From contig JAFGJN010000041.1 in the NCBI GenBank assembly GCA_016929055.1, forward strand, positions 10,731 to 74,730: 64,000 nt of DNA, read 5' to 3'. Positions within the stretch are counted from its first letter, which is position 1; every line of letters starts with the position of its first letter. The notes beneath the pieces are model-generated. The model saw only the letters and a program-made list of their open reading frames with translations, searched no databases and was not told the origin of the DNA. The position numbers and the translations under genes are program-made. This DNA comes from Candidatus Zhuqueibacterota bacterium. GTDB taxonomy: Bacteria; Zhuqueibacterota; Zhuqueibacteria; Residuimicrobiales; Oceaniaggregativiventaceae. Shown here one piece after another: positions 12,889 through 47,603 of this stretch.

Positions 12889-13143
12889 AGTTTTTTCCTC
12901 GTTTGTCGGGTTCTATCAGAAAAACCTCAAAGATAAGAAAAATTCGATTCCGATCATTGACTATAACCCGTGATAGCGCATCCTTTGATCGGTTTTGACC
13001 GGGAATGGTCAGAATTAGATCTTTGTGGTAAAAAGAATTTTGCCGACAATTCTTGGTAATTTATGATTATCAACAATACACTTTAAATAATAAGTATTTT
13101 ATGCGTATTTTTCAAACAAAATTTAATTCGGCTTGGGACTGGT

Positions 13144-14436: not shown

Positions 14437-14562
14437 GCGCCTCCCCTGTTCCGACAAGATAGCAAATTTTTGCTTTCAATAAAATGGTTAATTTCGGATA
14501 TTACACTCAGACAGTTTACAAACATACTTACTCTATTGATATCGAAAACAAAGGAATCGCAC

Positions 14563-32803: not shown

Positions 32804-33324
32804 TTTTTCTTGTTCGGATTCATATGACCCCGAAAAATATGGCGTGAATCGTGCATAGTCACGAATGCAGCGGAATCGATGGCCTCGACCAACTTTAAAA
32901 CCAACCCGGTTTGGCGACGGCGGACAACGGTGTAAACCAATTCGATCGGCCCTTTGAGACCGCGCCCGTCGACAACAGTAACGCCAAAGCCGTTTTCCCG
33001 CAATATCTGGGTGATCTGATCCGATTTTTTAGAGATAACACGAACATGAGACCACCCCAACGCCAATCGATTTTCAATGGAAATACCTAAAAGCGTTCCG
33101 ATAGCAAAACCGCTGCTATAGGCGAAAACGTGAAAAAGATTTCCGATGCCAGAAATAGCTTTGGCGATTGCCAGCAAAAAGATGGTAACTTCAACCAATC
33201 CCACCAGGGCAGCGATATATTTACGACCCTGAATGATGAAAATCATTCGCATGGTGCCGAGAGACACGTCTGTCACACGTGCAACAAAAATCAACAATGC
33301 ACCCAGAAAAACCGAATAGGTCAT
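32800..33324 (-). CDS. UPF0316/DUF2179-family small membrane protein
   Basis: 174 aa. Three N-terminal TM helices (MTYSVFLGALLIFVARVTDVSLGTMRMIFIIQGRKYIAALVGLVEV...) are followed by a soluble DUF2179-like domain (GFGVTVVDGRGLKGPIELVYTVVRR). Confidence 0.55.
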   Translation of the reverse strand: MTYSVFLGALLIFVARVTDVSLGTMRMIFIIQGRKYIAALVGLVEVTIFLLAIAKAISGIGNLFHVFAYSSGFAIGTLLGISIENRLALGWSHVRVISKKSDQITQILRENGFGVTVVDGRGLKGPIELVYTVVRRRQTGLVLKLVEAIDSAAFVTMHDSRHIFRGHMNPNKKK

Positions 33325-33983
33325 GATTCATCCTTAAATATTTGCTGAATAACAGGCATCACTGGTGTCTTCACTGGGACACCAAAAGAGTGAAATTAAA
33401 ACATGAATTCGGGACTATCGATACCCTGTTCAATTAAAAAGCCCGGCGACGAATGTTGCTCAAATTGGGTTAAATGTAGATAACTTTTATCGAAAAAGCA
33501 AGTCCTGAGAGCCAGGTCAAATTCCGACTCTCTGTTGCCAGAGATCAACCACCATGCCAAGAAAAAACGAGTTCTTGATTGCGCCAAAACTTTTTCATCC
33601 TATACTGCATTCGGTGCGAAAACAGCAACTGTCTCACAATATCAGTCGAATAGCGTTCATTACAAACGTGAAAAGCAATTTCCACATACAAGTAACAACA
33701 TCAAATTGCACCTGTTGCGATTCGATCAAACCCGAAAGGGAATCAACGTATTTCGGATTGCTTTTAAATGAATTGTTTAGTATTTTAGAAAGCGGTCGGT
33801 CGCGAGGGATTTTAGATAGAATCATCCTTTCTGTAGGAAAAGATCGGCCATCGATGCAAGCGCTGTATCAGGTCTGCAGGTGCGCGTTTTCAGCATTTGG
33901 CGTCTTGCCGGTTTTTGGCTGTCGCCGGATTAAAGGAGGTGCTTACCGGGTTCATAGAATAAAAATCAACAAGGAGGATACGA

Positions 33984-35777
33984 TTGATTGACCCCAAACA
34001 CATTGAAAATTTCTTCTCGATCGACAGCGCTTTTACCACGATTTTACGCGAATCTTCTTCTGCAAAAGATGCCCGCTCGCAACTTTACCGCTTTTTAGAC
34101 CGCCTCGATCAAAGCCTTCAGGACACGATCGACACTACCGATTCTCTAGAGACCGCTCTCCAAAACAATTGTACCAGAGTTCTGCGCTCACTGATATCGC
34201 TGCGCAGTGAAAAAATCAGCGGTTTTCAACTTGTACATGCGCTTCGCATGCTCGCGCTCGATCAGCGCGATACGATCAGCAATTCCTGTACCGAGGCATT
34301 CATCGAGGACCTGAGCCACTTAGTGAAAGGCGTTGTTGGCAAGAGTGGTATCTATTCCGCCCAAGAATTGCCCGAATTCCTGCAGCTACAGGGACGGCAA
34401 GCAGCACGGGTCCGTTCCGATGAACTCGATAAAATGGCAGACGAGGCTCAACACTTTATGTCCCGGTATACCGATGGCCTGGATCGATCGATCATAGATG
34501 AACGACGGGCAAATAGGCAACGAATTTTAGATTATTTCAATGCCGATTCCAAAGAGTGGGACGATTATCTCTGGCAGATTCGTCACGTGATTCGCAACAG
34601 CACCGACCTGGCAAATCTGATCCAATTGACTGCCGACGAAAAAAAATCGATCGACAGCGCCAATCAATACGGATTGCCGTTTGGAATCACGCCCTATTAT
34701 ATATCGCTGATGGACTATGAAACACATCGACGGCTGGACCATGCGGTTCGAGCTCAAGTTATACCGCCCCCGAAATACATCCAGGCAATAACTGAAAAGC
34801 GCGACCGTGTAGAAATCGAATGCGATTTTATGCACGAACATGATACGTCACCGATCGATTTGATTACCCGTCGGTATCCCAAAATCGCCATTTTCAAACC
34901 CTACAATACCTGCAGTCAGATCTGTGTCTATTGTCAGCGCAACTGGGAAATCGACAATGTCCTGGACAAGAATGCAATGGCTACAAAAAGAAAAATTCTC
35001 GAGGCCATTGACTGGATCAAAAACGATTCGTCGCTTACCGAAGTTTTGGTCACAGGCGGAGATCCGTTGGTTATGCGCGACGAGCGGGTCGAATTTGTCC
35101 TGAGTCAGCTTGCGAATCTGGAACAAATCGAGCGCATTCGAATCGGTTCGCGTACGCCCGTTGTTTTGCCTCAGCGAATCACCGACTCGTTGATTCGTAT
35201 CATCAGCCAATTTCACCAACCGGGGAAACGGGAAATCGCCCTGGTCACCCATTTTGAACACCCCTATGAAATCACGCCCGAATCGATGGAAGCAGTACAA
35301 AAGTTCCGTCGTGCCGGCATTTCTGTTTATAATCAGGCGGTCTTTACCGTTGAAAATAGCCGCAAGTTCGAACTCGTCGCTTTGCGGCGGCTTTTGCGTC
35401 TGATCGGAGTCGATCCCTATTATTCTTTTAACACCAAAGGGAAGGAAGAAACAGAAAATTATCGCGTCCCCATTGCCCGTTTGCAACAGGAAATTCGCGA
35501 GGAAGCACGGCTCTTTCCTGGACTGGTTCGCACCGACGAAGCCGTCTATAATGTACCTCGCCTCGGGAAAAATTACCTGCGCGCGGACATTAATCATTCT
35601 CTGTTGACAATTTTGCCGGAAGGTAAACGCGTTTATGAATTTTTTCCCTGGGAGCGTTTTATCGCTCGAACCGAGACCTATATCGATACAGACGTCCCCA
35701 TCGCCCTTTACCTCAGGGAATTGGAACGTCGAGGAGAAAACGTCGATGACTATCGCACCATCTGGTATTATTTCTAA
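33984..35777 (+). CDS. KamA-family radical SAM protein (lysine 2,3-aminomutase-like) with about 300-aa N-terminal extension
   Basis: TTG start 7 nt after AAGGAGG. The radical SAM cluster motif CSQICVYCQRNW (C-x3-C-x2-C) is followed by the KamA-family segments (VTGGDPL, RIGSRTPVVLPQR, LVTHFEHP) including the C-terminal region. The N-terminal about 300 residues precede the usual KamA core. Confidence 0.8.
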   Translation: MIDPKHIENFFSIDSAFTTILRESSSAKDARSQLYRFLDRLDQSLQDTIDTTDSLETALQNNCTRVLRSLISLRSEKISGFQLVHALRMLALDQRDTISNSCTEAFIEDLSHLVKGVVGKSGIYSAQELPEFLQLQGRQAARVRSDELDKMADEAQHFMSRYTDGLDRSIIDERRANRQRILDYFNADSKEWDDYLWQIRHVIRNSTDLANLIQLTADEKKSIDSANQYGLPFGITPYYISLMDYETHRRLDHAVRAQVIPPPKYIQAITEKRDRVEIECDFMHEHDTSPIDLITRRYPKIAIFKPYNTCSQICVYCQRNWEIDNVLDKNAMATKRKILEAIDWIKNDSSLTEVLVTGGDPLVMRDERVEFVLSQLANLEQIERIRIGSRTPVVLPQRITDSLIRIISQFHQPGKREIALVTHFEHPYEITPESMEAVQKFRRAGISVYNQAVFTVENSRKFELVALRRLLRLIGVDPYYSFNTKGKEETENYRVPIARLQQEIREEARLFPGLVRTDEAVYNVPRLGKNYLRADINHSLLTILPEGKRVYEFFPWERFIARTETYIDTDVPIALYLRELERRGENVDDYRTIWYYF

Positions 35778-36194
35778 TTGTGACCAGCGTCAATAGAAAT
35801 AAGCGGGAAAAGTAAGATTTTAAATTGATCTCCGTATAGCATCCTCGAACCGCAACTTGGCATAACTCCCAATTCGTGAGAGCTGTATCACGATATGACA
35901 ACTCGAACGAATTGTGCGATTTTGCGACATCCCGCGCCAAAAACCATTTGCCGACGACCGATAGTGAGCTCTTTTTTTTGCCCACTGGTTCGCCGAATAG
36001 CCTTTTTTATTAATTAACAGTTATTTACAAGCAATTTGCCTGGTTTTTCAGAAAGGTTTTTAATTGATTGAATATATTGTACTTGTTTTTTTCCCGCAGA
36101 AAAGGCGAGTCCAGGCCGGCATTGTACCAGGAATTTCTGGCACTGCATTTGATTGGTTAATTGCAAAGGATCCTCACTTCACCGGAGGCTTATC

Positions 36195-37331
36195 ATGTCG
36201 CATCAACCCTTTTATCGCTTGATCCTCATTTTGACTCTATTGGCCTGCATAGGAACCGCTGGCGCACAGGTCAAGTTGGATGCCTGGTTGTTGAACAAGG
36301 ATATCAAAGTCCTTTTTCTCAGCGATTTCAATTTTACTGGAAATGCGGCGATGAGCGGGGACTTTTTTCAGTTGCAGCTCACCAACCAAACGCCGAGCGA
36401 TCAATCTATACGCGTGCGTTTGGAGGTTGGATGGGATGGTGGAGAGGACGGCAAGATTGCCGAGGGTATTACCCGGCCTTTTCTCCTTCAAATGGGTGAA
36501 ATACGTATGATCAGATCGAGTGACCTGCTGGGCGGTCACCACACCTACTCGCTTGAAGACTATGCCATCGATTCCGACGCGGAACTATTGAAAGACAAAA
36601 TTCTCAAAACCGGCAAGGTACCTTCTGGCGTATACAGCTTTAGGTTTCAAATTATGTCCGAATCGATGGACAGCGTTCTCGATGAGCGTCAGATCGATAT
36701 CCTGATCACCAATCCGACAACACTGTATCTACAATCGCCGGGGGCATCAGCGGAACTGGAACTGCAATCCATCTTTTCTCCTTATCCCCTATTCCGCTGG
36801 ATTTCAGACATGAATCGGTTTCGGCTCATCGTTGCCGAGAAATTGGACGATGTACACGATCAGGCCGCTCCCGATGAAATTATACAGGATCGAGTGATTT
36901 TTGAAAAAGAACTGATCGTCGATCCAACACTGTCGCAGGTTGAGAACGGGGTCGAAACGGTTGTCGCTCCCGCCTACACCTATCCATCGGTCGGGGCCCC
37001 TGCTCTGCAGGCGGGCAAAACCTATTACTGGCAGGTACACGGATTGGTCAACAGTGCCGGCCAACAGATCGAATTACCCAGCGAAATCTGGGCTTTTCGG
37101 GTTGCCGACCTAACCCAGGCATCGACCTCCAGGGTTTTGGCGACACTCTTGAGCTCTCTGCAATGCGGCAATCTGGAATCCTTTTTTGGTCCTGGTTCTC
37201 CTCTGGAAGGGTATGAACCTACAGGAATTTTTATGATCAACGGTCAACCGATTTCATTGCAAGCGGTACAACAAATACTGGCCAAGATTCAGAGCGGCGA
37301 ATATCAATTGGTGGACACCACCTGCGAGTAA
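36195..37331 (+). CDS. Hypothetical secreted protein
   Basis: ATG at 36195 with signal peptide MSHQPFYRLILILTLLACIGTAGAQV. It has no recognisable catalytic motif. It directly precedes the FecR-domain gene, with a 4-nt gap to the GTG at 37336 or 40 nt to the ATG at 37372. Confidence 0.5.
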   Translation: MSHQPFYRLILILTLLACIGTAGAQVKLDAWLLNKDIKVLFLSDFNFTGNAAMSGDFFQLQLTNQTPSDQSIRVRLEVGWDGGEDGKIAEGITRPFLLQMGEIRMIRSSDLLGGHHTYSLEDYAIDSDAELLKDKILKTGKVPSGVYSFRFQIMSESMDSVLDERQIDILITNPTTLYLQSPGASAELELQSIFSPYPLFRWISDMNRFRLIVAEKLDDVHDQAAPDEIIQDRVIFEKELIVDPTLSQVENGVETVVAPAYTYPSVGAPALQAGKTYYWQVHGLVNSAGQQIELPSEIWAFRVADLTQASTSRVLATLLSSLQCGNLESFFGPGSPLEGYEPTGIFMINGQPISLQAVQQILAKIQSGEYQLVDTTCE

Positions 37332-37371
37332 TCGGGTGGACTTTCAGAACACCAACCATGGAGTTTTATCG

Positions 37372-38070
37372 ATGAGACAGCGTTTATTTTTTGGGATCGC
37401 AACACTGGTCGGGCTTTTCGTTTTTACCGCCGATGCCGCTCCTTCCCCCTCCTCATCGGCAGAAAAGGATATCGCTCTGGTCCTCAAGGTCAAGGGAGAG
37501 GCTCAAGTCAAACTCAATTCTAGGCCCTGGCAAAGTTTACAAAAAGGCTCGCGTTTGAGCAGTGGTACGGAAATTCGGACTGGACACGATGCACTGGTCG
37601 CCCTGGTTTTTACCGACGACAAAAGCATGATGAAGATACGGCAGGACTCGCAGGTTCTGCTCAAGGGCCAACGGGATCAAAACCAGATTCGCAAGCAGAT
37701 CGCTGTCGATTTGGGCGCAATTTGGGCCCGAATCACGCCGGGTGGAGCAGGATTTCGCATGGAAACGCCTTCGGGTGTCGCTGCCGTCAAGGGAACCGAA
37801 TTTTACGGTATTGTGGGTCCAGACGGAGTGACCATTATTATTGGAATCCGCGGTCTGATTGAATTGTTCAACGAAACAGGATCGGTTTTGGTGGGCGCCG
37901 GACAAACGGGTACAGCAACCAAAGACCAAATTCCAGAATTGCAGATGACCCAGCAGCTCGACAACTGGGCCGAGGAAGATAATCTGGTGCGCGAACTGGA
38001 GATAGAATTTCAAAACGAAAAATCTGAAACCAAAACCCTAAAAATCCGATACCGAGAAGTCGATCGCTGA
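37372..38070 (+). CDS. FecR-domain protein (secreted/periplasmic)
   Basis: Signal peptide MRQRLFFGIATLVGLFVFTADA. The FecR-family signature is ...TPSGVAAVKGTEFYGIV... with preceding beta-rich repeats. An alternative GTG start at 37336 abuts the upstream stop. Confidence 0.65.
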   Translation: MRQRLFFGIATLVGLFVFTADAAPSPSSSAEKDIALVLKVKGEAQVKLNSRPWQSLQKGSRLSSGTEIRTGHDALVALVFTDDKSMMKIRQDSQVLLKGQRDQNQIRKQIAVDLGAIWARITPGGAGFRMETPSGVAAVKGTEFYGIVGPDGVTIIIGIRGLIELFNETGSVLVGAGQTGTATKDQIPELQMTQQLDNWAEEDNLVRELEIEFQNEKSETKTLKIRYREVDR

Positions 38071-38243
38071 TCAATACCGATTCACCCCTTTCCTATCAAA
38101 GGCTTTTCAATGTTCGAGTTCCACCTCTTCGCAACCGAATATTCACTGGACGGAGAGGCCGTGAGTTCTACGGCGATTATTTCCATCGGCAAAACCGACT
38201 CTATTGACACTATGTGAATTGCATCCGTCGGGAGAGCTTTTCA

Positions 38244-40769
38244 ATGAAACGCTGCTTTGTCCGGGTTGTTATGGTTCTTTTAGCATCCGTGGCTGTCCTT
38301 TATGCTGAGCCGAATCTTTTGCACATGCCCCCGCCTCAGATTTTCAGCGGCCACGATGCCAAACTGCAATTTACTGTAGAGCCGCTCGGAACTCGCCTTA
38401 TATTTGCCCAACTTTATTACCGGCGAGCGGGTGACAACAACTTTCAAGAAATCCCCTTTTCTCCGCAAGGTAATGGTTGGGCGGCCCTAATTCCCGCAGG
38501 CGATGTGACCGGTGTTGGGGTGGAATATTTTATATCCGCCCTTTTGATTGATGACATCGTTCTCACGTACCCTGTTTACAATCCCTACAAAGAACCTCAG
38601 CGGCTGGATGTTCTGCCGGCTCCCGTCAAGCCGGAAATACAACAAGTTAAATCGGCCGCCGCGATGCCCACGTCAATGGTCGAACCAGAGAAAACGGCAG
38701 AACCGGCCATCGCGGCTACTCCAGCCGATTCCATCGATTGGCCCCAGACGGATGATGAAATCATCATTCTTTCTCCAGACGATCACGCCGCGATGCCAGC
38801 CGCAGACCTTCTTTTTGCCGCCTCTATCAATCGAGATGAGCCAATCGATTCAAATAACGTCAAACTGTTTCTCGACGGCCAGGAAATCAGCGACGGCCTC
38901 GAGATATCGGAATATATCGTTTCCTATGTTCCGAAATCCATCCCGGCAGGAAACCATTGGTTTAAATTGGTCTTGCAGCGATCCGCACAACCGTCGCTCT
39001 CTCGAGTGGTCCATTTTAGCGTTCAAAGCGAGGAGAAACCGCTTTCAATTCCGGCCACTTTCTCTTCCTCGTTTTTCGCTGAAGCGCGTTCCGAAGAAAT
39101 CAGCAACAGGGAAGAATCCTTTGCTTTTGCCGGCGGCAGATTCGACGGGCAAACCGGTTCTCTTTCCTACAGCGGCCGTCTGTTGTTCACTTCGCTCGAA
39201 AAAAGTACTTTCCAACCACGCAACCGATATACTTTTTCCGTGGGGACAAAGTGGTTGGGGCTGAGCGCCGGCGATACCTATCCTCGATACAACGATTTGA
39301 TTCTCTGGGGCAAACGGGTTCGAGGAGTTTCGGGATATCTGCGCCTCGGTTTTTTCAACCTCGAAGCGACCTATGGAGAAATTCGACGCGCCGTGCAAGG
39401 CGACAGCCTACAACTGAGAAGGGGGACATTCGGCCGCAAAACACTGGCAATCCGGCCGAGTTTCGGCAGTGGTCAAAAATTCCAGCTGGGGTTGACCCTG
39501 GTCAAAACCCGCGATGACACCAGTTCCATCACCTATGGTCAAAATCCGCATGACAATCTCGTTTTCGGACCTGACCTCCGACTGTCGTTCGATCGCGGGC
39601 GCTTTGTCCTCACTGCATCCGGGGCGATGAGCCTTTCCACTCGAAATATCCAAGGAGGCGCGATCGATGCAGAGCAAATAAGCGAAGCGCTTGGACAAAA
39701 AGTCGATCTGCCCGTTGATCCGCAGGATTTGAGCCGATATCTTATCATTAACGACAGCACCTTTCCTATCGATCCTCGTGGTGGGAGCTCTGTGGCATGG
39801 GACGTCTCCCTGCGCCTGAATTATTACCGCAACCTCTTGCGAATCGGCTACAAATCGATCGGTTCAGAGTATTTGTCCCTGACAAACGATTGGATCCGCA
39901 CGGATGTCCAGGGACTTTATTTTTCCGATCGAATGCGCTTGTTTTCCAACAAGCTTTATCTTACATTGGGGTATGAAAATTATCAGGATAATTATTCACG
40001 CCAGGACGCAAATCCTTCGGTCGATCTCAAGACGTTTAACTATAGTCTGAGCTGGTTTCCGGGAAGCGGACTACCCCACGTCACGGCGAGTTTACGCACG
40101 CATTACCGAGACAACGGCCTTCCCGAAGATAGTCTGACGACGATCAACCGCAATTTGGGCAGTGACGGAGATTCGACTTATGTGCTGGATTATCGCGACA
40201 ACCAGCTGCACCGCGATCTGTCTCTAACCATCGGTTATGACCTGAATATTTGGGAACGGGATCATACGCTGCAGTTCAGTCTGTTGACCTATAACATGCA
40301 GGATCGCTACAAGCCGACGCGTCCGGCTGGATACAGTTCACTCGAATTCAGCAGCAATCTCTGGATGGTTTCCTGGACGTCGAATATTCGCCAGGACTTG
40401 CGCACATCCTGGCAATTCGCCTCTACGCGCAACCAGACGGGAGAGGATTCCGACTATCGCTATCGCATCATCGGTGGTCTGGCGGAATGGGAGCTAAACC
40501 AACGCCGGTTTGGCGCATTGGCGGAAATTCGACATACCACTATGGAAAATCGGTATTTGACCGTCATCGAGAACGACAATTCTGCCGAGGTCTCGGCCGA
40601 TGTTTTTCGCACCCTGTTTCGCTTCGGTGGATGGTATCAAATTCGATCGGGAATGCGGCTGACATTGGATGCCAATTTCTTTTCGATCAAACAAAAGAAC
40701 GACTTTTATCCCACACCAAAAGGTTATACCGATCGCATCATCAGATTGCGCTATGAAAAGCTTTATTAA
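38244..40769 (+). CDS. Large secreted protein with C-terminal outer-membrane beta-barrel-like region (function unknown)
   Basis: Signal peptide MKRCFVRVVMVLLASVAVLYA. The N-terminal domain is followed by an Ala/Pro-rich low-complexity linker. The C-terminal about 500 aa has alternating hydrophobic/polar strand periodicity and a terminal aromatic (...RLRYEKLY). It overlaps the downstream cyclase gene by 17 nt. Confidence 0.5.
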   Translation: MKRCFVRVVMVLLASVAVLYAEPNLLHMPPPQIFSGHDAKLQFTVEPLGTRLIFAQLYYRRAGDNNFQEIPFSPQGNGWAALIPAGDVTGVGVEYFISALLIDDIVLTYPVYNPYKEPQRLDVLPAPVKPEIQQVKSAAAMPTSMVEPEKTAEPAIAATPADSIDWPQTDDEIIILSPDDHAAMPAADLLFAASINRDEPIDSNNVKLFLDGQEISDGLEISEYIVSYVPKSIPAGNHWFKLVLQRSAQPSLSRVVHFSVQSEEKPLSIPATFSSSFFAEARSEEISNREESFAFAGGRFDGQTGSLSYSGRLLFTSLEKSTFQPRNRYTFSVGTKWLGLSAGDTYPRYNDLILWGKRVRGVSGYLRLGFFNLEATYGEIRRAVQGDSLQLRRGTFGRKTLAIRPSFGSGQKFQLGLTLVKTRDDTSSITYGQNPHDNLVFGPDLRLSFDRGRFVLTASGAMSLSTRNIQGGAIDAEQISEALGQKVDLPVDPQDLSRYLIINDSTFPIDPRGGSSVAWDVSLRLNYYRNLLRIGYKSIGSEYLSLTNDWIRTDVQGLYFSDRMRLFSNKLYLTLGYENYQDNYSRQDANPSVDLKTFNYSLSWFPGSGLPHVTASLRTHYRDNGLPEDSLTTINRNLGSDGDSTYVLDYRDNQLHRDLSLTIGYDLNIWERDHTLQFSLLTYNMQDRYKPTRPAGYSSLEFSSNLWMVSWTSNIRQDLRTSWQFASTRNQTGEDSDYRYRIIGGLAEWELNQRRFGALAEIRHTTMENRYLTVIENDNSAEVSADVFRTLFRFGGWYQIRSGMRLTLDANFFSIKQKNDFYPTPKGYTDRIIRLRYEKLY

Positions 40770-42858
40770 ATCGGTCAAAGGACTTGCTGTTCTTATAACC
40801 TTCGCCGCCTTTGTGCTGGCAATGCTTGTCTCGTCTTTTACTCTGGTGCAGAACATGCACCTCAAAATCGTCGACACCTTTTTCAGCCTTCGGGGACCGC
40901 TGGTTCCGTCTGATTCCTCCATTGTGGTTATCACGATCGACGATGAAGCCTTAAAGAGTCTGCCAAGTAAATATCCCTTTCCTACTCTGTATTATTCTCG
41001 CCTGGTAAACAATCTTGATCGCGCTGGTGCGCGTCTGATCATCTTTGATATCGAATTCACCGAAGCCAATAGCCTGAACCCAGAATCCGATCTGGAATTT
41101 GCGCGCCGTATTCGAGAGGCCGGCAACGTGATTCTAGCCGGCAAAGTCGTATTCGATGTCGGCAGTTATGGGATACAAAATTTTCATCTTTTGGAACCAA
41201 TTGCCCCTCTCCTGCGCAGTGGAGCGGGTTGGGGATTGGTCAATACGATTGAAGATGCCGATGGTTTTATCCGCCAGTATCTGCTCTTTCACCAGGTCAA
41301 CGAAAAAACCTACTATCCACTAGCAGTCAAAGCTTTGGAACACCTGCAAGGACGGTCGATTCCTGCTCAGGATCCCTACCTACGCCAGTTTCGCACCGGC
41401 TTGTTTACGGTGCCCAAAGCATCTGCCAATTCGTTTTTTATCAATTACCGCGGACCGGTCCGCACGTTTCCCGTCTATTCGCTCGCCCATGTTTTGGATG
41501 ATTCCACTTTTGATTTGCTCGAGGATGACGACACGGATATTTTCGATTTACATCTCGAGTGGGATACGTTTCGTGACAAGATCGTGCTTATCGGTGCTTC
41601 AGCCGAAGAACTGCAGGATAACAAATACACACCTTTTTATCATCACAACGACATCAAGCGAAAAATGCCGGGAGTGGAAATGCATGCGCACGCTCTCAGC
41701 ACCTTGTTAGACCGGGATTTTCTGCGCATGGTTCCTCGCTCGATTTCGATCTCCGCCTGGCTATTCCTCGCCATCTTGACAGCCTTTGTCACGTTGTTGC
41801 TGCGTCCCTTCAAAGCACTGGCGGTGATGGTCTGTGTGTCGCTTTTTCTGCTCTTTGGAGCCTTTTTTCTCTTTAGCGAAATAGGGTGGATTGTCAATCT
41901 CACGCAACCCCTGTTGGTTGTGGTCTTGATTTTTTTCTTCAACACTCTGTACCAAATCGTTCAGGAACAAAAAGAGAAAAATCGAATCCGTCAAACTTTT
42001 CAGCAATACGTCGCACCGTCGATCGTAAATAAAATGCTGAGTACGGGTGAACTCCCTGCCTATGGCGGAGAGCGCAGAGAGCTGACCATGCTTTTTTCCG
42101 ATATTCGAAAATTCAGCAGCTTTTCAGAAAACCACGAGCCAGAATATGTTGTCAACCGCTTGTCCGAGTATCTATCGGCGATGGTTGAAATCATCTTTAA
42201 GCACAATGGTACCTTGGATAAATTTATTGGCGATGAAATCATGGCTCTGTTCGGAGCTCCCTATAGTTTTGCGGATCACGCGGAACGAGCATGTATTGCG
42301 GCATTGGAAATGGTCAAAAAATTGGAATTTTTGAAAAAGGAAAAGAACGACGGCGGAAACAGCTTGTTTCAAATCGGCATCGGCATCAACACCGGAAAAG
42401 TTATTGTCGGAAATCTCGGCTCAAGTCAATTATTTGACTATACGGTGATCGGCGATCACGTCAATATTGGCGCGCGCCTGGAAGGCGTCAATAAGGAATA
42501 CAAGACAACGATTATTCTCAGCGAGCATACATGGGATGCGGTGCGAAAATCTGCCATAGTTCGGGAATTGGATATGGTCCGAGTTATGGGTCGAAACAAA
42601 CCGCTGCGCATCTATGAATTGCTGGGCATGGAATCGGTTTCTCAAATGCAAAAAGATTATCTCATCGATCTATTTGGTGAAGGATTGAGCGCTTACCGAG
42701 ATCGCCGTTGGTCGGATGCGATCAAAATTTTTCATCGCATCCTGCGCTATTACCCGGCTGATGGTCCGGCACGTGTTTTTACGATTCGGTGTTTGAATTA
42801 TCTCGAAAAGGCCCCCTCTGAAGAATGGGATGGGGTTTTTGAACTGCAGCAAAAATAA
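40753..42858 (+). CDS. CHASE2 sensor domain-containing adenylate/guanylate cyclase (class III)
   Basis: N-terminal TM, a periplasmic CHASE2-like region, then three TM helices. The class III cyclase catalytic domain has FSDIRKFSS, KFIGDEIMALFGAP and VIVGNLGSSQLFDYTVIGDHVNIGARLEG. Confidence 0.85.
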   Translation: MKSFIKSVKGLAVLITFAAFVLAMLVSSFTLVQNMHLKIVDTFFSLRGPLVPSDSSIVVITIDDEALKSLPSKYPFPTLYYSRLVNNLDRAGARLIIFDIEFTEANSLNPESDLEFARRIREAGNVILAGKVVFDVGSYGIQNFHLLEPIAPLLRSGAGWGLVNTIEDADGFIRQYLLFHQVNEKTYYPLAVKALEHLQGRSIPAQDPYLRQFRTGLFTVPKASANSFFINYRGPVRTFPVYSLAHVLDDSTFDLLEDDDTDIFDLHLEWDTFRDKIVLIGASAEELQDNKYTPFYHHNDIKRKMPGVEMHAHALSTLLDRDFLRMVPRSISISAWLFLAILTAFVTLLLRPFKALAVMVCVSLFLLFGAFFLFSEIGWIVNLTQPLLVVVLIFFFNTLYQIVQEQKEKNRIRQTFQQYVAPSIVNKMLSTGELPAYGGERRELTMLFSDIRKFSSFSENHEPEYVVNRLSEYLSAMVEIIFKHNGTLDKFIGDEIMALFGAPYSFADHAERACIAALEMVKKLEFLKKEKNDGGNSLFQIGIGINTGKVIVGNLGSSQLFDYTVIGDHVNIGARLEGVNKEYKTTIILSEHTWDAVRKSAIVRELDMVRVMGRNKPLRIYELLGMESVSQMQKDYLIDLFGEGLSAYRDRRWSDAIKIFHRILRYYPADGPARVFTIRCLNYLEKAPSEEWDGVFELQQK

Positions 42859-42873
42859 AAAAGCGAGGGTGCC

Positions 42874-43056
42874 ATGCAGGATGAAAAACAGGATCGCGAT
42901 GAACCGGTAACTGGCGAATACAAGGGGAATCCGGTGATCACTCTGAATCCAAACAGCCGCTATCCGTTTACTTTTGGTTTGGCAAAGGCAAAAATGATCA
43001 TCGATTATCTGGAGGAGATCCGTAACTTTGTTCAAGAGCATGACAAGAACGTATAA
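42874..43056 (+). CDS. Small conserved-looking protein (60 aa), function unknown
   Basis: ATG 5 nt after GAGGGTG. It lies 15 nt downstream of the cyclase stop and immediately before a canonical intrinsic terminator, placing it as the last gene of the operon. Confidence 0.45.
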   Translation: MQDEKQDRDEPVTGEYKGNPVITLNPNSRYPFTFGLAKAKMIIDYLEEIRNFVQEHDKNV

Positions 43057-43084
43057 AAAAAAACCGGCGAATGCCGGTTTTTTT
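43057..43084. terminator. Bidirectional rho-independent terminator
   Basis: AAAAAAA-CCGGC-GAAT-GCCGG-TTTTTTT: a 5-bp GC stem with a 4-nt loop, an A-run on one side and a T-run on the other. It terminates the + operon ending at 43056 and the - gene ending at 43090. Confidence 0.8.
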
Positions 43085-43089
43085 AACTT

Positions 43090-44397
43090 TTATCCGATAC
43101 GTTGCAACCATTCGCGTGCTTTCTCCACGTATTCGCTCTGCGGGTAGTCATCGATCACACCCTGGAAATAGCTTCGGGCACGCGCTGTATCGCCAAGTTT
43201 GAGATAAGTTCGACCAAGCATAAGTGTTGCATCGTCTTTTTTGTAAGAAAACTCGTAATTAAATACATTCTGAAAAGCTTGTGCCGCGTTTTCATATTGT
43301 CCCATTCCGAAATAGGCCTCACCGATCCAGTACTGGCTATTGCTTGAGAGCTTGTGATTGGGCAACCGTTCCTTGAGCTGATCCCATACCTGAATCGCCT
43401 GAGCATAATCCCGCGAGTAAAAAAGGCGCAATGCCTGTTCATAATCAGCTGAAAATTCGCCGCTGGTCGCCGTGACAGCAGACGAAACGGTGGACACGTT
43501 TGATTCCAGCTGAGCGATACGGTTGTTTTTTAGGACCAGATTGGAGCGCAGGTCCTGCAGTTCGCTGTTTTTGTTCTCAATCTGCCGATTGAGCTCATCG
43601 ACGCGGGATTTGAGCCGCACATAATGTTCCATGGTAAAATTGGTTTCTTCGCGCTCGAGATTGTCGATCTTGGTTTCAAAGATCTGCAAATTGTCCTGGG
43701 GCTTTTGTGTGTCGCTGGGCTCATCATCGAGCTGTGTCAAATCCAGCGGCTCGAGCGCCAAAAGATCTTCGTCTGGCTTTCGGTCGGCCGGACCGTCACC
43801 CATATAAAAAGTCAAACCCATACGGGTATTCAAATAACCATCTTTGTAATCTCCGGATTCAGCACCATCCAGGGCATCGCCGGTGGAAAAACGATAATCA
43901 GTAAAAATATTCAGTGCAGTCTTGCGGTTGATCATGTATTCCAAACCGCCACCGTAAATAAATGAACCATCAAAAAAACGCTTGCCCTCATTGGCTGGAG
44001 ACCCGATTGCGTATGGCTTTTCTCTTGTATACTCGAAATTGACCACACCGATTCCGAGTAAAATATAGGGGTTGATTTGTCCGGGCTTAAAAAGATTGAT
44101 ATTGGCTTTCAAATCAGCTGCGAGGAGATTGGTTTGAAACGTTTTTTCGACAAAACCGTCATTGAGCAGACCATAACCAAGAGATACAGACAAATTGAAG
44201 CGAGGACTGAGGATAAAACGGGCCATTGCTTCTGCAGCTAATCCGGCGCCGGTATGCGGTACATCGCAGTAAGGTTTTTGGAAACCAACGTTGAAACCGA
44301 TTCCCATCTTGGAGGGATTTTCGGAATAAATCTGCGCCCCCAGAGTGCCGCTGAAAAGCAAAAGGCCGAAAACTAGGATGCGTAATCGATTCATCAT
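43090..44397 (-). CDS. Fusion-type envelope protein: N-terminal OmpA-like beta-barrel domain, central coiled coil, C-terminal YbgF/CpoB-like TPR domain
   Basis: Signal peptide MMNRLRILVFGLLLFSGTLGAQ. The barrel region has the alternating pattern ...GFNVGF..., YILLGIGVVNFEY and TFYMGDG. The coiled-coil segment is LQIFETKIDNLEREE...LQDLRSNLVLKNNRIAQLESN. The C-terminus YEQALRLFYSRDYAQAIQVWDQL...SQYWIGEAYFGMGQYENAAQAFQNV...YPQSEYVEKAREWL matches the YbgF TPR repeat pattern. Confidence 0.6.
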   Translation of the reverse strand: MMNRLRILVFGLLLFSGTLGAQIYSENPSKMGIGFNVGFQKPYCDVPHTGAGLAAEAMARFILSPRFNLSVSLGYGLLNDGFVEKTFQTNLLAADLKANINLFKPGQINPYILLGIGVVNFEYTREKPYAIGSPANEGKRFFDGSFIYGGGLEYMINRKTALNIFTDYRFSTGDALDGAESGDYKDGYLNTRMGLTFYMGDGPADRKPDEDLLALEPLDLTQLDDEPSDTQKPQDNLQIFETKIDNLEREETNFTMEHYVRLKSRVDELNRQIENKNSELQDLRSNLVLKNNRIAQLESNVSTVSSAVTATSGEFSADYEQALRLFYSRDYAQAIQVWDQLKERLPNHKLSSNSQYWIGEAYFGMGQYENAAQAFQNVFNYEFSYKKDDATLMLGRTYLKLGDTARARSYFQGVIDDYPQSEYVEKAREWLQRIG

Positions 44398-44527
44398 TTT
44401 ATTCTCCCGTACAGGCCCTCGGCAATTGTGAATAAGCAACCGGGAAATGCCGAACTCCCCGTTGTGTACATCGCGTCAATCCGAATCCGTAGAATAGAAA
44501 TTTGTTTATTAAACCTTTCGTTCCTGG

Positions 44528-45058
44528 TCACCCCTCTCCGCCTTGATGTGAGGCTTCCCGCGGCAAAATCTGATCAAGCGTCATGTTTTGACCGGCATGA
44601 AGATTGTAAGCATCGAGCAACAAACGAATTTCCTGGATTATTTTTTCAATATGTTGGTTGCCCGCTCTCTGATGCATCGCTCGCCGCAATGTGATCAATT
44701 TTTCACCAAGCTTTTCGAAATAGTAGGTGCTCAGCGAAGTGTCTATCAAATGTTTTACCTGTTGATCGATGATTTGTCTCTTAGAGATCACATCTTTAAT
44801 CGTTCCCTGGAGCATTTGATAACTGTTGGTAGGGGGCAAACTCTCCTCCACCCCCAAATAGAGCAGATATACCGTTTCATCATCAACCGATGAAGGCGAC
44901 TTTTGAAGATCAAATTGTTTGACGATGAATGTTTCAACTTGACGCAATTCTTCTTTTTCTGCACGACGGTGAGTAGTAAAATGAATAATGCGTTTGCCTT
45001 GCGATTGACAGATTCGTACCACCAAATCGAGCGATGAGAAATAGTAAATATTTTTCAT
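44528..45058 (-). CDS. Hypothetical cytoplasmic protein (176 aa)
   Basis: ORF with plausible codon usage. There is no signal peptide or recognisable motif. It is followed upstream by a 790-bp ORF-poor region. Confidence 0.4.
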   Translation of the reverse strand: MKNIYYFSSLDLVVRICQSQGKRIIHFTTHRRAEKEELRQVETFIVKQFDLQKSPSSVDDETVYLLYLGVEESLPPTNSYQMLQGTIKDVISKRQIIDQQVKHLIDTSLSTYYFEKLGEKLITLRRAMHQRAGNQHIEKIIQEIRLLLDAYNLHAGQNMTLDQILPREASHQGGEG

Positions 45059-45704
45059 GCGATCACCCTCTGCTCAAGATGCTTTACCTTTTTATGACCG
45101 CAATTTTTGTGCCACTTTTTAAGGCCGATCTCGACAAATCTGTTGCCATCTTGCTCGTATCGTTCGTTTGATTACTGATAAAAATGATTGTTTTATCGTG
45201 AGTTAAAAGTCGCAAGCTGCCTGCGAAATCTCTGGCTCGAAAGGATTGTTTTTCGTGTTCGCAGTTTTTTTGTTCCCCGCTGTTGCATTTGTATTCATGT
45301 GTAACACATTTGTCATATTATTCGTGCCCGGTCTAACGACCGGACACCCGTGTTGTCAGATATTACCAAAATCAAGTGTCAACAGAATTGAACCACTGAT
45401 CATATTGCTTGTTTTGCACTACGCCAAATAAACTGGGAACCTGGTTGTCAACATATCGAATTGATTTTATAGAGGATTTGGCCATTTGCGCCACAGCCGA
45501 CATGTACCCGGATTCGGTACGAAGCACCGAATCCCAAACAAATACAATACGATATTTTCACCAATCTAGTGGAAATGATGAATGTTGCAAACTCATTAAA
45601 ATACTAACCTTTGTATTCTGTCAACACAGAATCCGGGATGTATTAAAAGAGCTGCTAAACTGAACAAACAGATAGAATTATGTCAATTATTTGAAGATAG
45701 AAAT

Positions 45705-45732
45705 AAAAAAGCGCTTTGTCAAGCGCTTTTTG
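45705..45732. terminator. Bidirectional rho-independent terminator
   Basis: AAAAAA-GCGCTT-TGTC-AAGCGC-TTTTTG. On the minus strand the hairpin is followed by TTTTTTATTT, and it lies 117 nt downstream of the metalloprotease stop at 45849. Confidence 0.75.
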
Positions 45733-45848
45733 TTCAAATATTGCACACTCGTTCACCACAAAAGCAACACTGGGTGTGGCAGAACAGAATAGCGTAACTA
45801 TAGGTTATGGCTGTCCCACATTTGGACATCACAGCAGCGGTATAAATA

Positions 45849-47603
45849 TCAACGAATCAATGCAATTTTTACCGGCTGAATTTTTTCTTCACATAAAATT
45901 TGAACCAAGTAAATACCAGAGGCCGCGGTCTGCCCCTGCTCATTCTTGCCGTCCCATTCCACAACATGATAACCTATTGAATGCCAACCCAGATTTTTGC
46001 TGAGGATCACCTCGCCAGTCAGTGTGACGATGGATAGGTTTACAGAATTGCTTGGACGGAGGAGGCTGAATTCTATCGAAATGCTACCATGCCGATTCGG
46101 AAAAAAGGGACTGGGATAAACCCGATGAATTTGATTGGCGAGCTGCGAAGCACCAATTCCAGGTGTAATACGAACAGCAAAAGGCTCGGCAAGCGGGAAA
46201 AAGCCATTACCCGGGCGGGATGTATTGACGACAGACAACCAAATCTCGCTATCAAGAGAAACATCGCGAATTTGTACGGGTGCTGCACCGCTGTTGATGC
46301 GCCATCGGGATTGCCCACCCTCGTAGCGCTCAAGAACTGCAATCATCCAATCAGCAGGAAACCCGGATTGCGGCTGAATAATATAATCACCGGGGATTCG
46401 GGGCGTCAATCGATAGAACAGGGTCTGCAACTGCGACGCTTGCCCTTCGATAATCATCTCTTCAATGAGTTCATGTTCATTTTTGGCAAGGAGCAAGGGA
46501 TAGTGCTTGCCCTGGGGATAAAAGTTTAAGGTATCGGCTCGTTGGCCAGTATGGACATTCCAGACCGAAAATTCAGCCAATTCGCGATTGAAATTGCTGC
46601 CATAGTTTTGGAAAACGGCCTGGAATGCCTGAAAAAGATCAACGTATTCCAATTCCGTCCAAAATTGCCGAGTAATATTTCGACCGTACTTTTTTTCAAG
46701 CATGTGAAGAAAAACAGAGCTGCCGTATTCATGGCTCCCGTTAAAAAGATAAAAAGCCTGGTCCGAACCGGTGAAAAAAGGATCGAGATAATAATAGTAA
46801 TCGTTAATGGAATCGAATACGACATCCTCCATCCAGGTCGAGCTCATTTCATAGAAAAACCTTTCATTGTAAGCGACGGTCGAATATCCACGATATCCCA
46901 ATTGAATCATATGAAAGAATTCGTGTGCCGCCGTCACCCGCAATGCGTCGATACCGCGGGTTGGAGTGTGGGTGAAATTGTTGTCCATTTCGATAAAGCT
47001 TGAGAACGAACGGCTTTCAGATCCTTCGACCCGTTCTTCTTCGGTTGTCGATCCATAGGCTGCCATGTTACGCATATAGATATCATATTCTGGACCACAT
47101 CGACCATCGTCTGAGGGTGGAGGGCGATAGCCAAGAACGTCTATTTCGTAAGAATAGACCTGGTCATAGATCTCGGCGCACTGGCGGGCAAAGTCATCCA
47201 TTGTCTGGTGCACGCCTTCGGCAGCATAGTGGATTTTGAACCTGCCGCTGGGAGATATAACTCGCTGGTTAAAGACAGTGGAATCGGGACGTTGGAACCA
47301 TTGCTGCAGCTTGACGCGTTGCAGCCCGTCGGCTTGCGCCATCAACTGTTTGGCCTCCGCCTTGATAAAAGTGGGATCCAAAATCAAATCGGTGGCCAGT
47401 CCCCGATAGTTGAGCGGCAAATCCTGCGGTGCATAGATCGCCTGCAGCTGCAGATTAACAGCATCAATCGAATCGATGCGACCGAGGTGCAATTCGTAAG
47501 AAACATGTTCGATGAATCTATGCGCACCGCCCTGCAAACCAGTGTGGATCAAGAGTCCGACAACCAACAACAGTCGAACAATAACGATCGATCGTTTATG
47601 CAT
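45849..47603 (-). CDS. Secreted zinc metalloprotease (HExxH) with T9SS C-terminal sorting domain
   Basis: Signal peptide, HExxH zinc motif AAHEFFHMIQ, and a terminal about 90 aa (RVYPSPFFPN...VNLSIVTLTGEVI...SGIYLVQI...IALIR) matching the T9SS type-A CTD. Confidence 0.65.
   Translation of the reverse strand: MHKRSIVIVRLLLVVGLLIHTGLQGGAHRFIEHVSYELHLGRIDSIDAVNLQLQAIYAPQDLPLNYRGLATDLILDPTFIKAEAKQLMAQADGLQRVKLQQWFQRPDSTVFNQRVISPSGRFKIHYAAEGVHQTMDDFARQCAEIYDQVYSYEIDVLGYRPPPSDDGRCGPEYDIYMRNMAAYGSTTEEERVEGSESRSFSSFIEMDNNFTHTPTRGIDALRVTAAHEFFHMIQLGYRGYSTVAYNERFFYEMSSTWMEDVVFDSINDYYYYLDPFFTGSDQAFYLFNGSHEYGSSVFLHMLEKKYGRNITRQFWTELEYVDLFQAFQAVFQNYGSNFNRELAEFSVWNVHTGQRADTLNFYPQGKHYPLLLAKNEHELIEEMIIEGQASQLQTLFYRLTPRIPGDYIIQPQSGFPADWMIAVLERYEGGQSRWRINSGAAPVQIRDVSLDSEIWLSVVNTSRPGNGFFPLAEPFAVRITPGIGASQLANQIHRVYPSPFFPNRHGSISIEFSLLRPSNSVNLSIVTLTGEVILSKNLGWHSIGYHVVEWDGKNEQGQTAASGIYLVQILCEEKIQPVKIALIR

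Follow-up and report, generated by a model that had tools for sequence, protein, structure and literature searches.

We find that positions 36195-43084 of the window, the 64,000-nucleotide stretch of DNA from a candidate-division KSB1 bacterium analyzed here, hold a conserved cassette that we read, with a probability of roughly 0.6, as a trans-envelope signaling module with cAMP as its output. The cassette encodes two secreted proteins (g1 and g2), a predicted outer-membrane barrel (g3), and a CHASE2 receptor adenylate cyclase (g4), followed by a 60-aa protein (g5) and a terminator. The arrangement of g1-g4 is far beyond chance. Relays of this kind are already known; the cassette brings two unannotated protein families into one, and we infer its mechanism as set out below. 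The initial annotation, which had proposed an envelope-spanning relay, is supported in this respect, as the genes are co-conserved and g3 is modeled as a membrane barrel.

Organization of the cassette

All five genes are co-oriented and end in a terminator, and we found each of them in the order, on the strand, and at the positions described for them in the initial annotation:

g1, 36195..37331, + strand, secreted protein of 378 aa, unannotated family
g2, 37372..38070, + strand, secreted FecR/MtxA_N-domain protein of 232 aa
g3, 38244..40769, + strand, 841-aa outer-membrane protein (predicted), unannotated family
g4, 40753..42858, + strand, CHASE2 receptor adenylate cyclase (predicted), 701 aa
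g5, 42874..43056, + strand, 60-aa protein, conserved unannotated family
Bidirectional intrinsic terminator, 43057..43084, no strand, common to the convergent gene at 43090-44439 (− strand)

The intergenic gaps, taken in order from g1 to g5, are 40 nt, 173 nt, −17 nt, and 15 nt. The short gaps claimed earlier therefore hold for g1-g2, g3-g4, and g4-g5, while the gap between g2 and g3, at 173 nt, is not especially short. This gap is not conserved in the nearest relative, it contains no conserved structure (folding z-score −0.61), and no Rfam family matched it; a regulatory RNA or attenuator at this position was therefore rejected. The 17-nt overlap of g3 and g4 was correctly described, with the g4 ATG at 40753 and the g3 stop at 40769, and an overlap of ∼14-17 nt occurs again in relatives L008, L009, L013, L016, L019, L021, and L023. 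The terminator begins one base past the g5 stop and reads AAAAAAACCGGC-GAAT-GCCGGTTTTTTT (43057-43084), which gives a 12-bp stem with five G-C pairs and a 4-nt loop, flanked 5′ by an A7 tract and 3′ by a T7 tract. Since convergent genes lie on both sides of it, this terminator is fairly called bidirectional, as had been proposed for the element directly after the 60-aa ORF.

Conservation across genomes

A genome scan with a 13-sequence alignment of g3 relatives found a g3 relative in 209 species genomes, and the g3 family comprises ∼925 cluster representatives at E ≤ 1e-30. Synteny, which the initial annotation had suggested as a check, was read in the best 80 loci of the 209 species genomes (GTDB) with HMMs built for the cassette genes. 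These 80 loci come from different species in the lineages KSB1, Calditrichota, Ignavibacteria/Melioribacter, and Fidelibacterota. Among them, a full CHASE2-cyclase gene (g4) follows g3 in 75/75 assessable loci and a FecR gene (g2) precedes g3 in 75/75, and a g1 homologue was found before the FecR gene in 68 of the 70 loci where this could be assessed. The order and strand of g1-g2-g3-g4 are constant in all assessable loci of the best 80, across several phyla-level lineages, and the genes that flank the cassette are unrelated between loci. Only one cassette locus per species genome was present among the 80 loci recovered. The cassette is chromosomal and occurs in most members of whole lineages. 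In KSB1 relatives, the cassette has as a neighbor a CpoB/YbgF-type TPR protein fused to an outer-membrane barrel; this neighbor gene is kept only within KSB1.

The CHASE2 adenylate cyclase g4

The g4 protein matches CHASE2 (PF05226) with 181 bits (cutoff 26.3) over profile positions 3-254 of 257, as well as Guanylate_cyc with 80.7 bits. It consists of a first transmembrane segment (11-29), a periplasmic CHASE2 domain, three transmembrane segments at ∼331-403, a class III cyclase domain at ∼438-626, and a C-terminal TPR-like tail. Hydropathy peaks were found at 11-29, 356-374, and 385-403, and the segment at ∼331-351 was read off the sequence. By hydropathy, g4 has the topology of CHASE2 receptors, with one transmembrane segment, an extracytoplasmic CHASE2 domain, three transmembrane segments, and a cytoplasmic output domain.

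The best solved relatives of g4 are Cya2 (2W01; E488K variant 6FHT) and P. aeruginosa CyaB. Residues D450, K490, D494, N571, and R575 are invariant in 68 g4 orthologues, and the position of D562 is occupied by Asp in 59, Asn in eight, and Ala in one of the 68. The class III catalytic set (two metal-binding Asp residues, Asn, and Arg) is thus complete and is accompanied by a Lys/Asp base-specifying pair. In the alignment, K490 falls on residue 488 of Cya2, which specifies the base: Glu there yields a guanylate cyclase and Lys an adenylate cyclase (PMC5995499). Since the Lys/Asp pair is of the ATP type and the catalytic set is intact, cAMP, not cGMP, is the predicted product of g4. Of the two outputs named for g4 in the initial annotation, this retains cAMP and drops cGMP, and the catalytic residues served, as had been suggested there, to read the nucleotide specificity. 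A cAMP receptor encoded nearby was rejected on the absence of the PROSITE cNMP-binding motif from all window ORFs of at least 100 aa.

The outer-membrane barrel g3

The g3 protein had been claimed to be an 851-aa membrane barrel. Its length is corrected to 841 aa, with the start at ATG 38244 in place of GTG 38214, where the mechanical ORF began; the 841-aa protein matches NCBI protein JW992_02245 along its whole length at 100% identity. Its signal peptide is followed by two Ig-like domains (22-125 and 172-262), with a disordered Pro/Ala/Glu-rich linker (128-170) between them, and then by a barrel (272-841) that ends in a C-terminal Tyr. The barrel itself holds up, as an AlphaFold2 model (pLDDT 83.7) gave, by its DSSP string, an outer-membrane barrel of roughly 26-28 strands. 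The connections between strands are alternately short and long in the model, as expected with both termini in the periplasm. The Ig-like domains would face the periplasm. The protein is predicted to carry the general features of outer-membrane β-barrels, namely a signal peptide, a closed antiparallel barrel, and a C-terminal aromatic β-signal. Based on the model, we are confident in predicting that g3 is a large outer-membrane β-barrel.

Structural matches to g3 were almost exclusively outer-membrane barrels, the closest solved folds being MtrB, TonB-dependent receptors, ushers, and LptD, at TM-scores of 0.51 or less and a sequence identity of ∼10%. The best Foldseek matches (MtrB, FimD, and LptD) are barrels that hold a partner. 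In Pfam, g3 has no match to Plug, TonB_dep_Rec, or STN, and its AlphaFold2 model shows neither the plug nor the C-terminal domains that ushers have. Conservation in g3 is highest in the motif at 343-361, which belongs to an inter-strand connection predicted from the loop lengths to be extracellular. The number of N-terminal Ig repeats varies among g3 homologues. Elsewhere, the same Ig-like module is found as 17-20 repeats in giant adhesin-like proteins.

These features bear on what the module would sense. The cue could be the state of the envelope (outer-membrane integrity, the spacing between outer and inner membranes, or peptidoglycan/lipid perturbation) instead of an extracellular ligand, in which case the tethered Ig domain, the FecR protein, and CHASE2 would form a mechanical or proximity sensor. 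For instance, the flexible g3 linker and the variable number of Ig repeats suit a spacer function, and the KSB1 neighbor, a CpoB/YbgF-type TPR-barrel fusion, is of an envelope-tethering type. Moreover, the single locus per species genome in the 80 recovered loci spans very different habitats and lineages, and such wide retention argues for a housekeeping cue over a niche-specific ligand. However, the predicted extracellular side of motif 343-361 is a better fit to ligand binding, the KSB1 neighbor gene is not kept beyond KSB1, and NsrA, an outer-membrane protein of Sinorhizobium meliloti, responds to an external protein (PMC7529298). We consider envelope sensing improbable on balance and favor a signaling module that responds to an outer-membrane event.

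The secreted partners g1 and g2

The g1 gene starts at ATG 36195 with GGAGG in front, and its product carries an SPase-I type signal peptide with an AxA↓Q site that is kept in homologues. A lipoprotein assignment of g1 was rejected because the Cys of its LLAC is not conserved and the homologues carry AxA↓Q SPase-I sites. The protein has two Ig/FN3-like β-sandwich domains, at about 26-171 and 177-303, and ends in a small helical subdomain. The g2 gene most likely starts at ATG 37372, with GGAG 8 nt upstream, while the mechanical ORF begins earlier, at GTG 37336. In Pfam, g2 matches FecR (PF04773) with an E value of 1.9e-10 and 41.5 bits (cutoff 24); its match to PF24045 is under the cutoff of that family. 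Hydropathy reveals one hydrophobic segment, at the N terminus, and g2 consists solely of a signal peptide and the FecR domain, with neither an anti-sigma domain nor a further membrane anchor. It is 30% identical to residues 1-184 of S. meliloti NsrA (E 4e-19) and has weak matches to the Leptospira surface proteins Lsa33, Lsa19, and LipL45. No TPR match was found in g1, g2, or g3.

The FecR domain of g2 might also be taken to point to classical surface signaling of the FecA/FecR/FecI type, and PADLOC PycC models match the cyclase domain of g4 (best E 2.4e-24), which would suit a Pycsar-type cyclic-nucleotide anti-phage system. We give these two possibilities hardly any weight. g2 is without the cytoplasmic anti-sigma domain or transmembrane anchor, none of the loci examined has an adjacent ECF sigma factor, and the Plug, TonB_dep_Rec, and STN matches are missing from g3. 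Likewise, the PycC matches stem from the fold that class III cyclases have in common, no gene for a cNMP-binding effector lies next to the cassette, and ATP, not a pyrimidine, is what the Lys/Asp pair specifies. The chromosomal, lineage-wide, and syntenic cassette is also unlike defense islands.

A further alternative is that the g3 barrel serves mainly as a pore for export or assembly, in the manner of an usher, LptD, or MtrB, and places g1 and/or g2 in or on the outer membrane, while the cyclase only monitors or regulates this assembly. The g1 and g2 proteins would then form a surface structure or adhesin. Ushers such as FimD and PapC are about 800-880 aa long, and g3 is near this size. The two Ig-like domains of g1, the weak Leptospira matches of g2, and the recurrence of the g3 Ig-like module in giant adhesin-like proteins all suit a surface structure, and the strict synteny fits export of g1 and g2 equally well. 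Against this stand the lack of a Pfam match to Usher (PF00577), PapD, or pilin in any cassette protein, the missing usher plug and C-terminal domains in g3, and the signaling role of the NsrA precedent. Furthermore, known export systems are characterized neither by constant linkage to a sensor-cyclase gene nor by translational overlap with one. We therefore judge an export pore to be unlikely and retain the signaling module as our reading.

The lineage-specific gene g5

The initial annotation had counted the 60-aa ORF among the cassette genes. It proved to be a real gene but not a core one, as it is present in 8/65 assessable loci and confined to a KSB1 subclade, which makes it a lineage-specific add-on. 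The gene begins 15 nt past g4 and has 19 homologues; its product is 71% identical to the L008 orthologue, where g3 is only 55% identical. It lies 11-35 nt (mostly 11-23) after the cyclase gene in L008, L010-L012, L013-L015, L017, L018, L020, L022, and L032 and ∼84 nt after it in L023, a position that is kept even where the downstream flank differs. Because g5 has no signal peptide, it is presumed to be cytoplasmic. Searches against Pfam, PDB, PHROG, and PADLOC profiles gave nothing significant. A PC4/YdbC-like fold, considered on the basis of a motif resemblance, was rejected at an hhalign probability of 0.7%.

Proposed mechanism and significance

In the relay that we propose, g3 would be a large outer-membrane barrel with periplasmic Ig-like domains, one of them on the flexible Pro/Ala/Glu-rich tether, and g4 would be the inner-membrane receptor cyclase. 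The soluble FecR-domain protein g2 and the tandem Ig/FN3-like protein g1 would connect the barrel with the CHASE2 domain of g4 in the periplasm; alternatively, or as well, they may occupy the lumen of the barrel. An outer-membrane event, either the binding of a ligand to surface loops or some alteration of the barrel complex, would be the trigger and would reach CHASE2 through protein-protein contacts. This input would shift the dimer geometry of the class III cyclase and thereby change how fast it makes cAMP from ATP. Where g5 is present, in the KSB1 subclade, this small and presumably cytoplasmic protein may serve as an accessory factor. In this proposal, we infer which proteins touch and in what order they relay the signal, which way it flows, how the Ig domains are oriented, and what the stimulus is. 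More tentatively, the plug-less 26-28-strand barrel might house or dock g1 or g2, as MtrB does MtrA and LptD does LptE, with the partner activating CHASE2 directly; we see this as possible, but would not expect it. If it were true, CHASE2 would generally be switched by protein partners and not by small ligands, and a relay of the NsrA type would have arisen on at least two occasions, from barrels that are not related.

The extracytoplasmic sensor domain CHASE2 is widespread, and few of its activating signals have been established. To our knowledge, NsrA, from one rhizobial symbiosis, is the only worked example of an outer-membrane partner for CHASE2. The cassette would present the NsrA-type logic in another form, with separate genes, an unrelated larger barrel, and an extra Ig/FN3 protein, and it lends support to the view that CHASE2 is generally activated from protein to protein through FecR. 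It also places two sizeable protein families that lack annotation in a functional context. Since the cassette is carried by cultured Melioribacter spp. and Stygiobacter electus, the relay is genetically testable in these organisms.

Comparison with known systems

The linkage of CHASE2 to FecR and outer-membrane partners is less novel than the initial annotation had implied, as both NsrA-CyaK and FecR/CHASE2 pairs are already known. FecR-type secreted proteins adjoin CHASE2 receptors in Burkholderia and Pseudomonas (PMC5192318), in Campylobacterota (PMC9239204), in Magnetospirillum, where the protein is MtxA (PMC4439547), and on Paracoccus pAMI5. In these COG4254-type pairs (the Burkholderia BiofilmReg operon, P. 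aeruginosa PA4035/36, the Campylobacterota cAMP cluster, MtxA, and pAMI5), the gene directly upstream of that for the CHASE2 receptor encodes a secreted protein with a FecR or MtxA_N domain. They differ in having a histidine kinase as the output or LysM, a TPR protein, a phosphodiesterase, or DUF4136 as partners, and neither a g3-type barrel nor a g1-type protein is reported in these clusters.

FecA-FecR-FecI resembles the cassette in that an outer-membrane barrel with an N-terminal periplasmic domain is followed by a FecR-domain protein and a cytoplasmic output. The cassette, in contrast, has no TonB-dependent plug, STN, anti-sigma domain, or ECF sigma factor, and its output would be a second messenger. 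The barrels structurally closest to that of g3, those of MtrB, LptD, and FimD/PapC, are of comparable size. MtrB and LptD have 26 strands each and the ushers FimD and PapC have 24. Unlike these systems, the cassette includes no cytochrome, LptE, or pilus genes, and its accessory domains are unlike theirs.

The closest parallel is NsrA-CyaK (and CyaD1/CyaD2) of S. meliloti. NsrA is needed together with CyaK for the perception of a protein signal (PMC7529298, PMC13001267), and the signal to which NsrA responds is an external protein (PMC7529298). CyaD1 becomes constitutive when its CHASE2 domain is deleted (PMC5498481). As in the cassette, an outer-membrane barrel gene lies upstream of and overlaps a CHASE2 cyclase gene; nsrA is directly upstream of cyaK, and its stop overlaps the cyaK start by 1 nt. 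NsrA also contains a FecR module homologous to g2 (the 30% identity noted above), its barrel is similar in size to that of g3 (about 570-600 residues), and cAMP is the output, as predicted for the cassette. The host lineages differ, being Rhizobiaceae for NsrA and KSB1, Ignavibacteria, and Calditrichota for the cassette. NsrA is a single 1200-aa chain of FecR, TPR (378-587), and barrel, whereas the cassette has FecR as a separate secreted protein, no TPR region, Ig-like domains on the barrel, and the extra, obligatory Ig/FN3 protein g1. We do not assign g3 to the NsrA family, as BLASTP gave no match between the barrels and two profile comparisons by hhalign were likewise negative, with probabilities of 0.09% (NsrA alone) and 0.06% (5-sequence NsrA alignment). 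Because the barrels have no detectable sequence relationship, the analogy of g3 with NsrA is one of architecture and context. By this analogy, the cassette probably represents a variant of the Sinorhizobium NsrA-CyaK surface-to-cAMP relay that is split into separate genes and lacks annotation.

Gene organization of the cassette

ORF calling on the window revealed five ORFs followed by a hairpin on the + strand at 36195-43084, referred to as the cassette herein:

g1: ATG 36195, +, GGAGG upstream; secreted Ig/FN3-like protein
g2: ATG 37372 (most plausible start), +, GGAG upstream; secreted FecR-domain protein
g3: ATG 38244 (most plausible start), +; 841-aa predicted outer membrane (OM) barrel protein
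g4: ATG 40753, +, start 17 nt ahead of the g3 stop; 701-aa CHASE2 class III cyclase
g5: +, starts 15 nt past g4; 60-aa protein
Hairpin: directly 3' of the g5 stop, between convergent genes; AAAAAAACCGGC-GAAT-GCCGGTTTTTTT, 12-bp stem

The gaps are 40 (g1-g2), 173 (g2-g3), -17 (g3-g4), and 15 nt (g4-g5). The initial annotation had described five genes, with a 17-nt g3/g4 overlap and a bidirectional terminator immediately after the 60-aa ORF. All of this was recovered except the length of g3, given there as 851 aa, which is the mechanical ORF from GTG 38214. The 841-aa protein is an exact match to NCBI JW992_02245 from a candidate division KSB1 metagenome-assembled genome (MAG). Conservation and folding checks of the 173-nt g2-g3 gap found no conserved or unusually structured element, and an Rfam search of positions 33000-46000 gave no family match.

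The convergent neighbor (43090-44439, -), which shares the bidirectional terminator, encodes an unusual fusion: a small OM barrel domain (OMP_b-brl) at the N-terminus, then a coiled coil, and at the C-terminus a TPR domain of CpoB/YbgF type (TIGR02795 at 89.9 bits, just below the 90.1 cutoff). Genes of this type adjoin the cassette in nine KSB1-type loci, and not in locus L010 or in Ignavibacteria. The upstream gene (33984-35777, +) encodes a 597-aa KamA-family radical SAM aminomutase-like protein (TIGR00238, 333 bits) with an N-terminal extension of ~180 aa that matched no model; in L010, too, the gene immediately preceding the cassette encodes a 597-aa radical SAM protein.

Conservation across genomes

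A word-seeded search with g3 returned 72 homologues in KSB1, Calditrichaeota, Ignavibacteria, and Melioribacter, all annotated as hypothetical. In a full HMMER scan, 925 of 1.84 billion cluster representatives matched at E<=1e-30. In single-locus look-ups (L001/L002, L003 from Melioribacter, L004/L005, L009), distant g3 homologues occurred in the same four-gene arrangement, with unrelated flanks. In L001 only, among the loci looked up, a hybrid histidine kinase/response regulator (HisKA, HATPase_c, Response_reg; 12525-14870, Ignavibacteria-type) follows the cyclase on the same strand.

When each GTDB species was represented by one genome, a pattern scan placed a g3 relative in 209 genomes, and the best 80 loci were kept for a synteny count. 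These include cultured Stygiobacter electus and two Melioribacter strains, along with MAGs labelled KSB1, Calditrichota, Ignavibacteriota, Fidelibacterota, and Neomarinimicrobiota. HMMs for g1-g5, trained on the window plus eight loci, were run on six-frame ORFs of the 80 loci.

Occurrence of cassette genes at assessable loci among the best 80
g4 (CHASE2 cyclase) after g3: 75/75
g2 before g3: 75/75
g1 before g2: 68/70
g5 after g4: 8/65

Gene order and strand were constant, and each partial g4 match is accounted for by a contig end. Hence, g1 through g4 are co-conserved elsewhere, as the initial annotation required of its proposal.

Its inclusion of the 60-aa ORF holds within narrower bounds, as all g5-bearing loci belong to the KSB1-type subclade nearest the window. 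There, g5 sits 11-35 nt (mostly 11-23) past the cyclase, the exception being L023 (~84 nt), and the spacing is kept even where the next gene differs (L010). In L008, identity to the window protein is 71% for g5 against 55% for g3. Together with the narrow spacing, this marks g5 as a genuine gene under constraint that was added in one lineage.

Secreted proteins and the predicted g3 barrel

Only g2 and g4 were recognized by Pfam/NCBIfam; g1, g3, and g5 matched no family in Pfam, NCBIfam, PHROGs, or PADLOC. By hydropathy, g1, g2, and g3 each carry one N-terminal hydrophobic segment resembling a cleavable signal peptide. We ruled out g1 as a lipoprotein since its Cys is not retained in the homologues, which share AxA|Q cleavage sites. 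g2 contains little besides its FecR domain (41.5 bits, cutoff 24), with a sub-threshold MtxA_N/DUF7354 match.

An AlphaFold2 model of g3 built on 62 homologues (mean pLDDT 83.7; 401 residues at >=90) contained the following:

N-terminus: signal helix
22-125: first Ig-like sandwich
128-170: disordered Pro/Ala/Glu-rich linker of 43 residues
172-262: second Ig-like sandwich
272 to the C-terminal ...RYEKLY: barrel, an unbroken run of 27-28 long antiparallel strands

The count is 28 when two short strand pairs are counted separately, and connections then alternate between short (2-7 residues) and long (up to 50), as is typical of barrels with turns on the periplasmic face and loops at the surface. 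From this alternation in the DSSP string of the model, we infer that both termini, and hence the Ig domains, would lie on the periplasmic side. The top Foldseek match was the MtrB sheath (E 6.5e-10, TM 0.41/0.51), followed by FimD, Cir, and LptD, none closely related (~10% identity). The MtrB sheath has 26 strands, and the modeled g3 barrel falls within the largest barrel size class. The confident model thus supports, as a prediction, the membrane barrel anticipated by the initial annotation. Conservation within the family peaks at the motif GD.YP...LIL.GKRVRG (343-361). In g3, Pfam/NCBIfam detected no Plug, STN, or TonB_dep_Rec signature.

The N-terminal arm varies in length between lineages, given that some Ignavibacteria/Bacteroidota-labelled homologues (L057 5348-7207, L076 5666-7213, L087 2550-4083) carry three to five extra Ig-like modules before the barrel. 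This module (profile positions ~17-130) also matches 17-20 tandem repeats in giant proteins of 3051-4022 aa (P0202, P0207, P0238, P0256), which make up much of the g3 profile's 8490 weak matches; P0202 additionally has PKD, Big_7, and beta-helix domains.

Predicted cyclase specificity

g4 (CHASE2, 181 bits; Guanylate_cyc, 80.7 bits) shows canonical CHASE2 topology by hydropathy: one TM, an extracytoplasmic domain, three TMs, the cyclase, and a TPR-like tail. The nearest solved catalytic domains are those of Synechocystis Cya2, also a CHASE2 protein, and P. aeruginosa CyaB. Lys490 aligns with Cya2 residue 488, where Glu makes the enzyme a guanylate cyclase and the E488K substitution turns it into an adenylate cyclase (PMC5995499). 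Asp562 aligns with the Asp of CyaB. Across 68 orthologues from related loci, D450, K490, D494, N571, and R575 are invariant, and position 562 is Asp in 59, Asn in eight, and Ala in one. Based on these residues, g4 is predicted to be active and ATP-specific, which narrows the originally suggested cAMP/cGMP output to cAMP rather than cGMP.

Proposed relay

We favor a trans-envelope relay with cAMP output (probability roughly 0.6). The analysis shows which proteins take part, the compartment of each, a complete catalytic site, and the invariant linkage of the genes; all contacts, the direction of flow, and the stimulus are inferred. The g3 barrel would be the OM element, and its tethered periplasmic Ig domains, together with soluble g2 and g1, would link it to the CHASE2 domain of g4, which would set the activity of the cytoplasmic cyclase dimer. 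The OM-FecR-CHASE2 cyclase relay of the initial annotation withstood both of its own refutation tests, co-conservation (80 loci) and a predicted barrel.

To our knowledge, the lumen of every solved barrel in the largest size class is occupied by a partner protein or a plug. Since g3 lacks a plug and is of MtrB/LptD size, g1 or g2 might tentatively be placed inside it. The co-conserved barrel and secreted proteins can also be read differently: g3 may export or assemble g1/g2 at the surface while the cyclase merely monitors this, the main rival, which we consider unlikely. A variant, in which the module reports envelope state and not an external ligand, seems less probable still. Two sizeable protein families gain functional context, and strict conservation over deep lineages, cultured strains included, makes CHASE2 activation experimentally approachable.

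Comparison with known systems

We rejected a Fec-type system (no anti-sigma domain, ECF sigma factor, or TonB-dependent transducer features), a chaperone-usher system (no Usher, PapD, or pilin matches), and a Pycsar system (PycC matches reflect the shared fold only; no effector). That secreted FecR-type proteins are genetically linked to CHASE2 receptors has already been noted several times. For instance, a LysM-FecR protein is paired with a CHASE2 histidine kinase in the Burkholderia BiofilmReg operon and P. aeruginosa (PMC5192318); a Campylobacterota cluster combines a CHASE2 cyclase, phosphodiesterase, FecR-domain OM protein, and TPR protein (PMC9239204); and in Magnetospirillum MtxA is followed by a CHASE2 cyclase (PMC4439547). 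On Paracoccus aminophilus pAMI5, TPR, FecR, and CHASE2 cyclase genes occur in that order. Its 655-aa FecR-domain protein (L007 5904-7871) has collagen-like repeats and a C-terminal TbpB/fHbp-like small barrel (weak matches), one more architecture of FecR partner. Another FecR-OM component pairing lies a few kb from the cassette in L011 (16678-17421 and 17502-18183) and L012 (16423-17163 and 17239-18147), where a second FecR gene sits beside a CsgG-family gene (curli-type OM secretion channel).

Functionally, the nearest precedent is NsrA of S. meliloti, reported to be an OM-associated receptor that, along with CyaK (and CyaD1/D2), is required for perceiving a protein signal (PMC7529298, PMC13001267). 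On pSymB, the nsrA stop overlaps the cyaK start, and the 1200-aa NsrA comprises FecR (66-160), TPR (378-587), and a barrel that its authors take as 600-1200 (PMC7529298). The logic is the same, and g2 is homologous to the N-terminal FecR part, aligning over nearly its full length, signal peptide included, with NsrA 1-184 (30% identity, E 4e-19). In contrast to the single chain of NsrA, the cassette encodes FecR as a separate gene, lacks TPR, bears Ig-like domains on its barrel, and has an extra obligatory Ig/FN3 protein (g1); the two barrels showed no sequence relationship by BLASTP or hhalign (probability 0.06-0.09%). The cassette is not a new principle; it embodies NsrA-type logic in a different construction.
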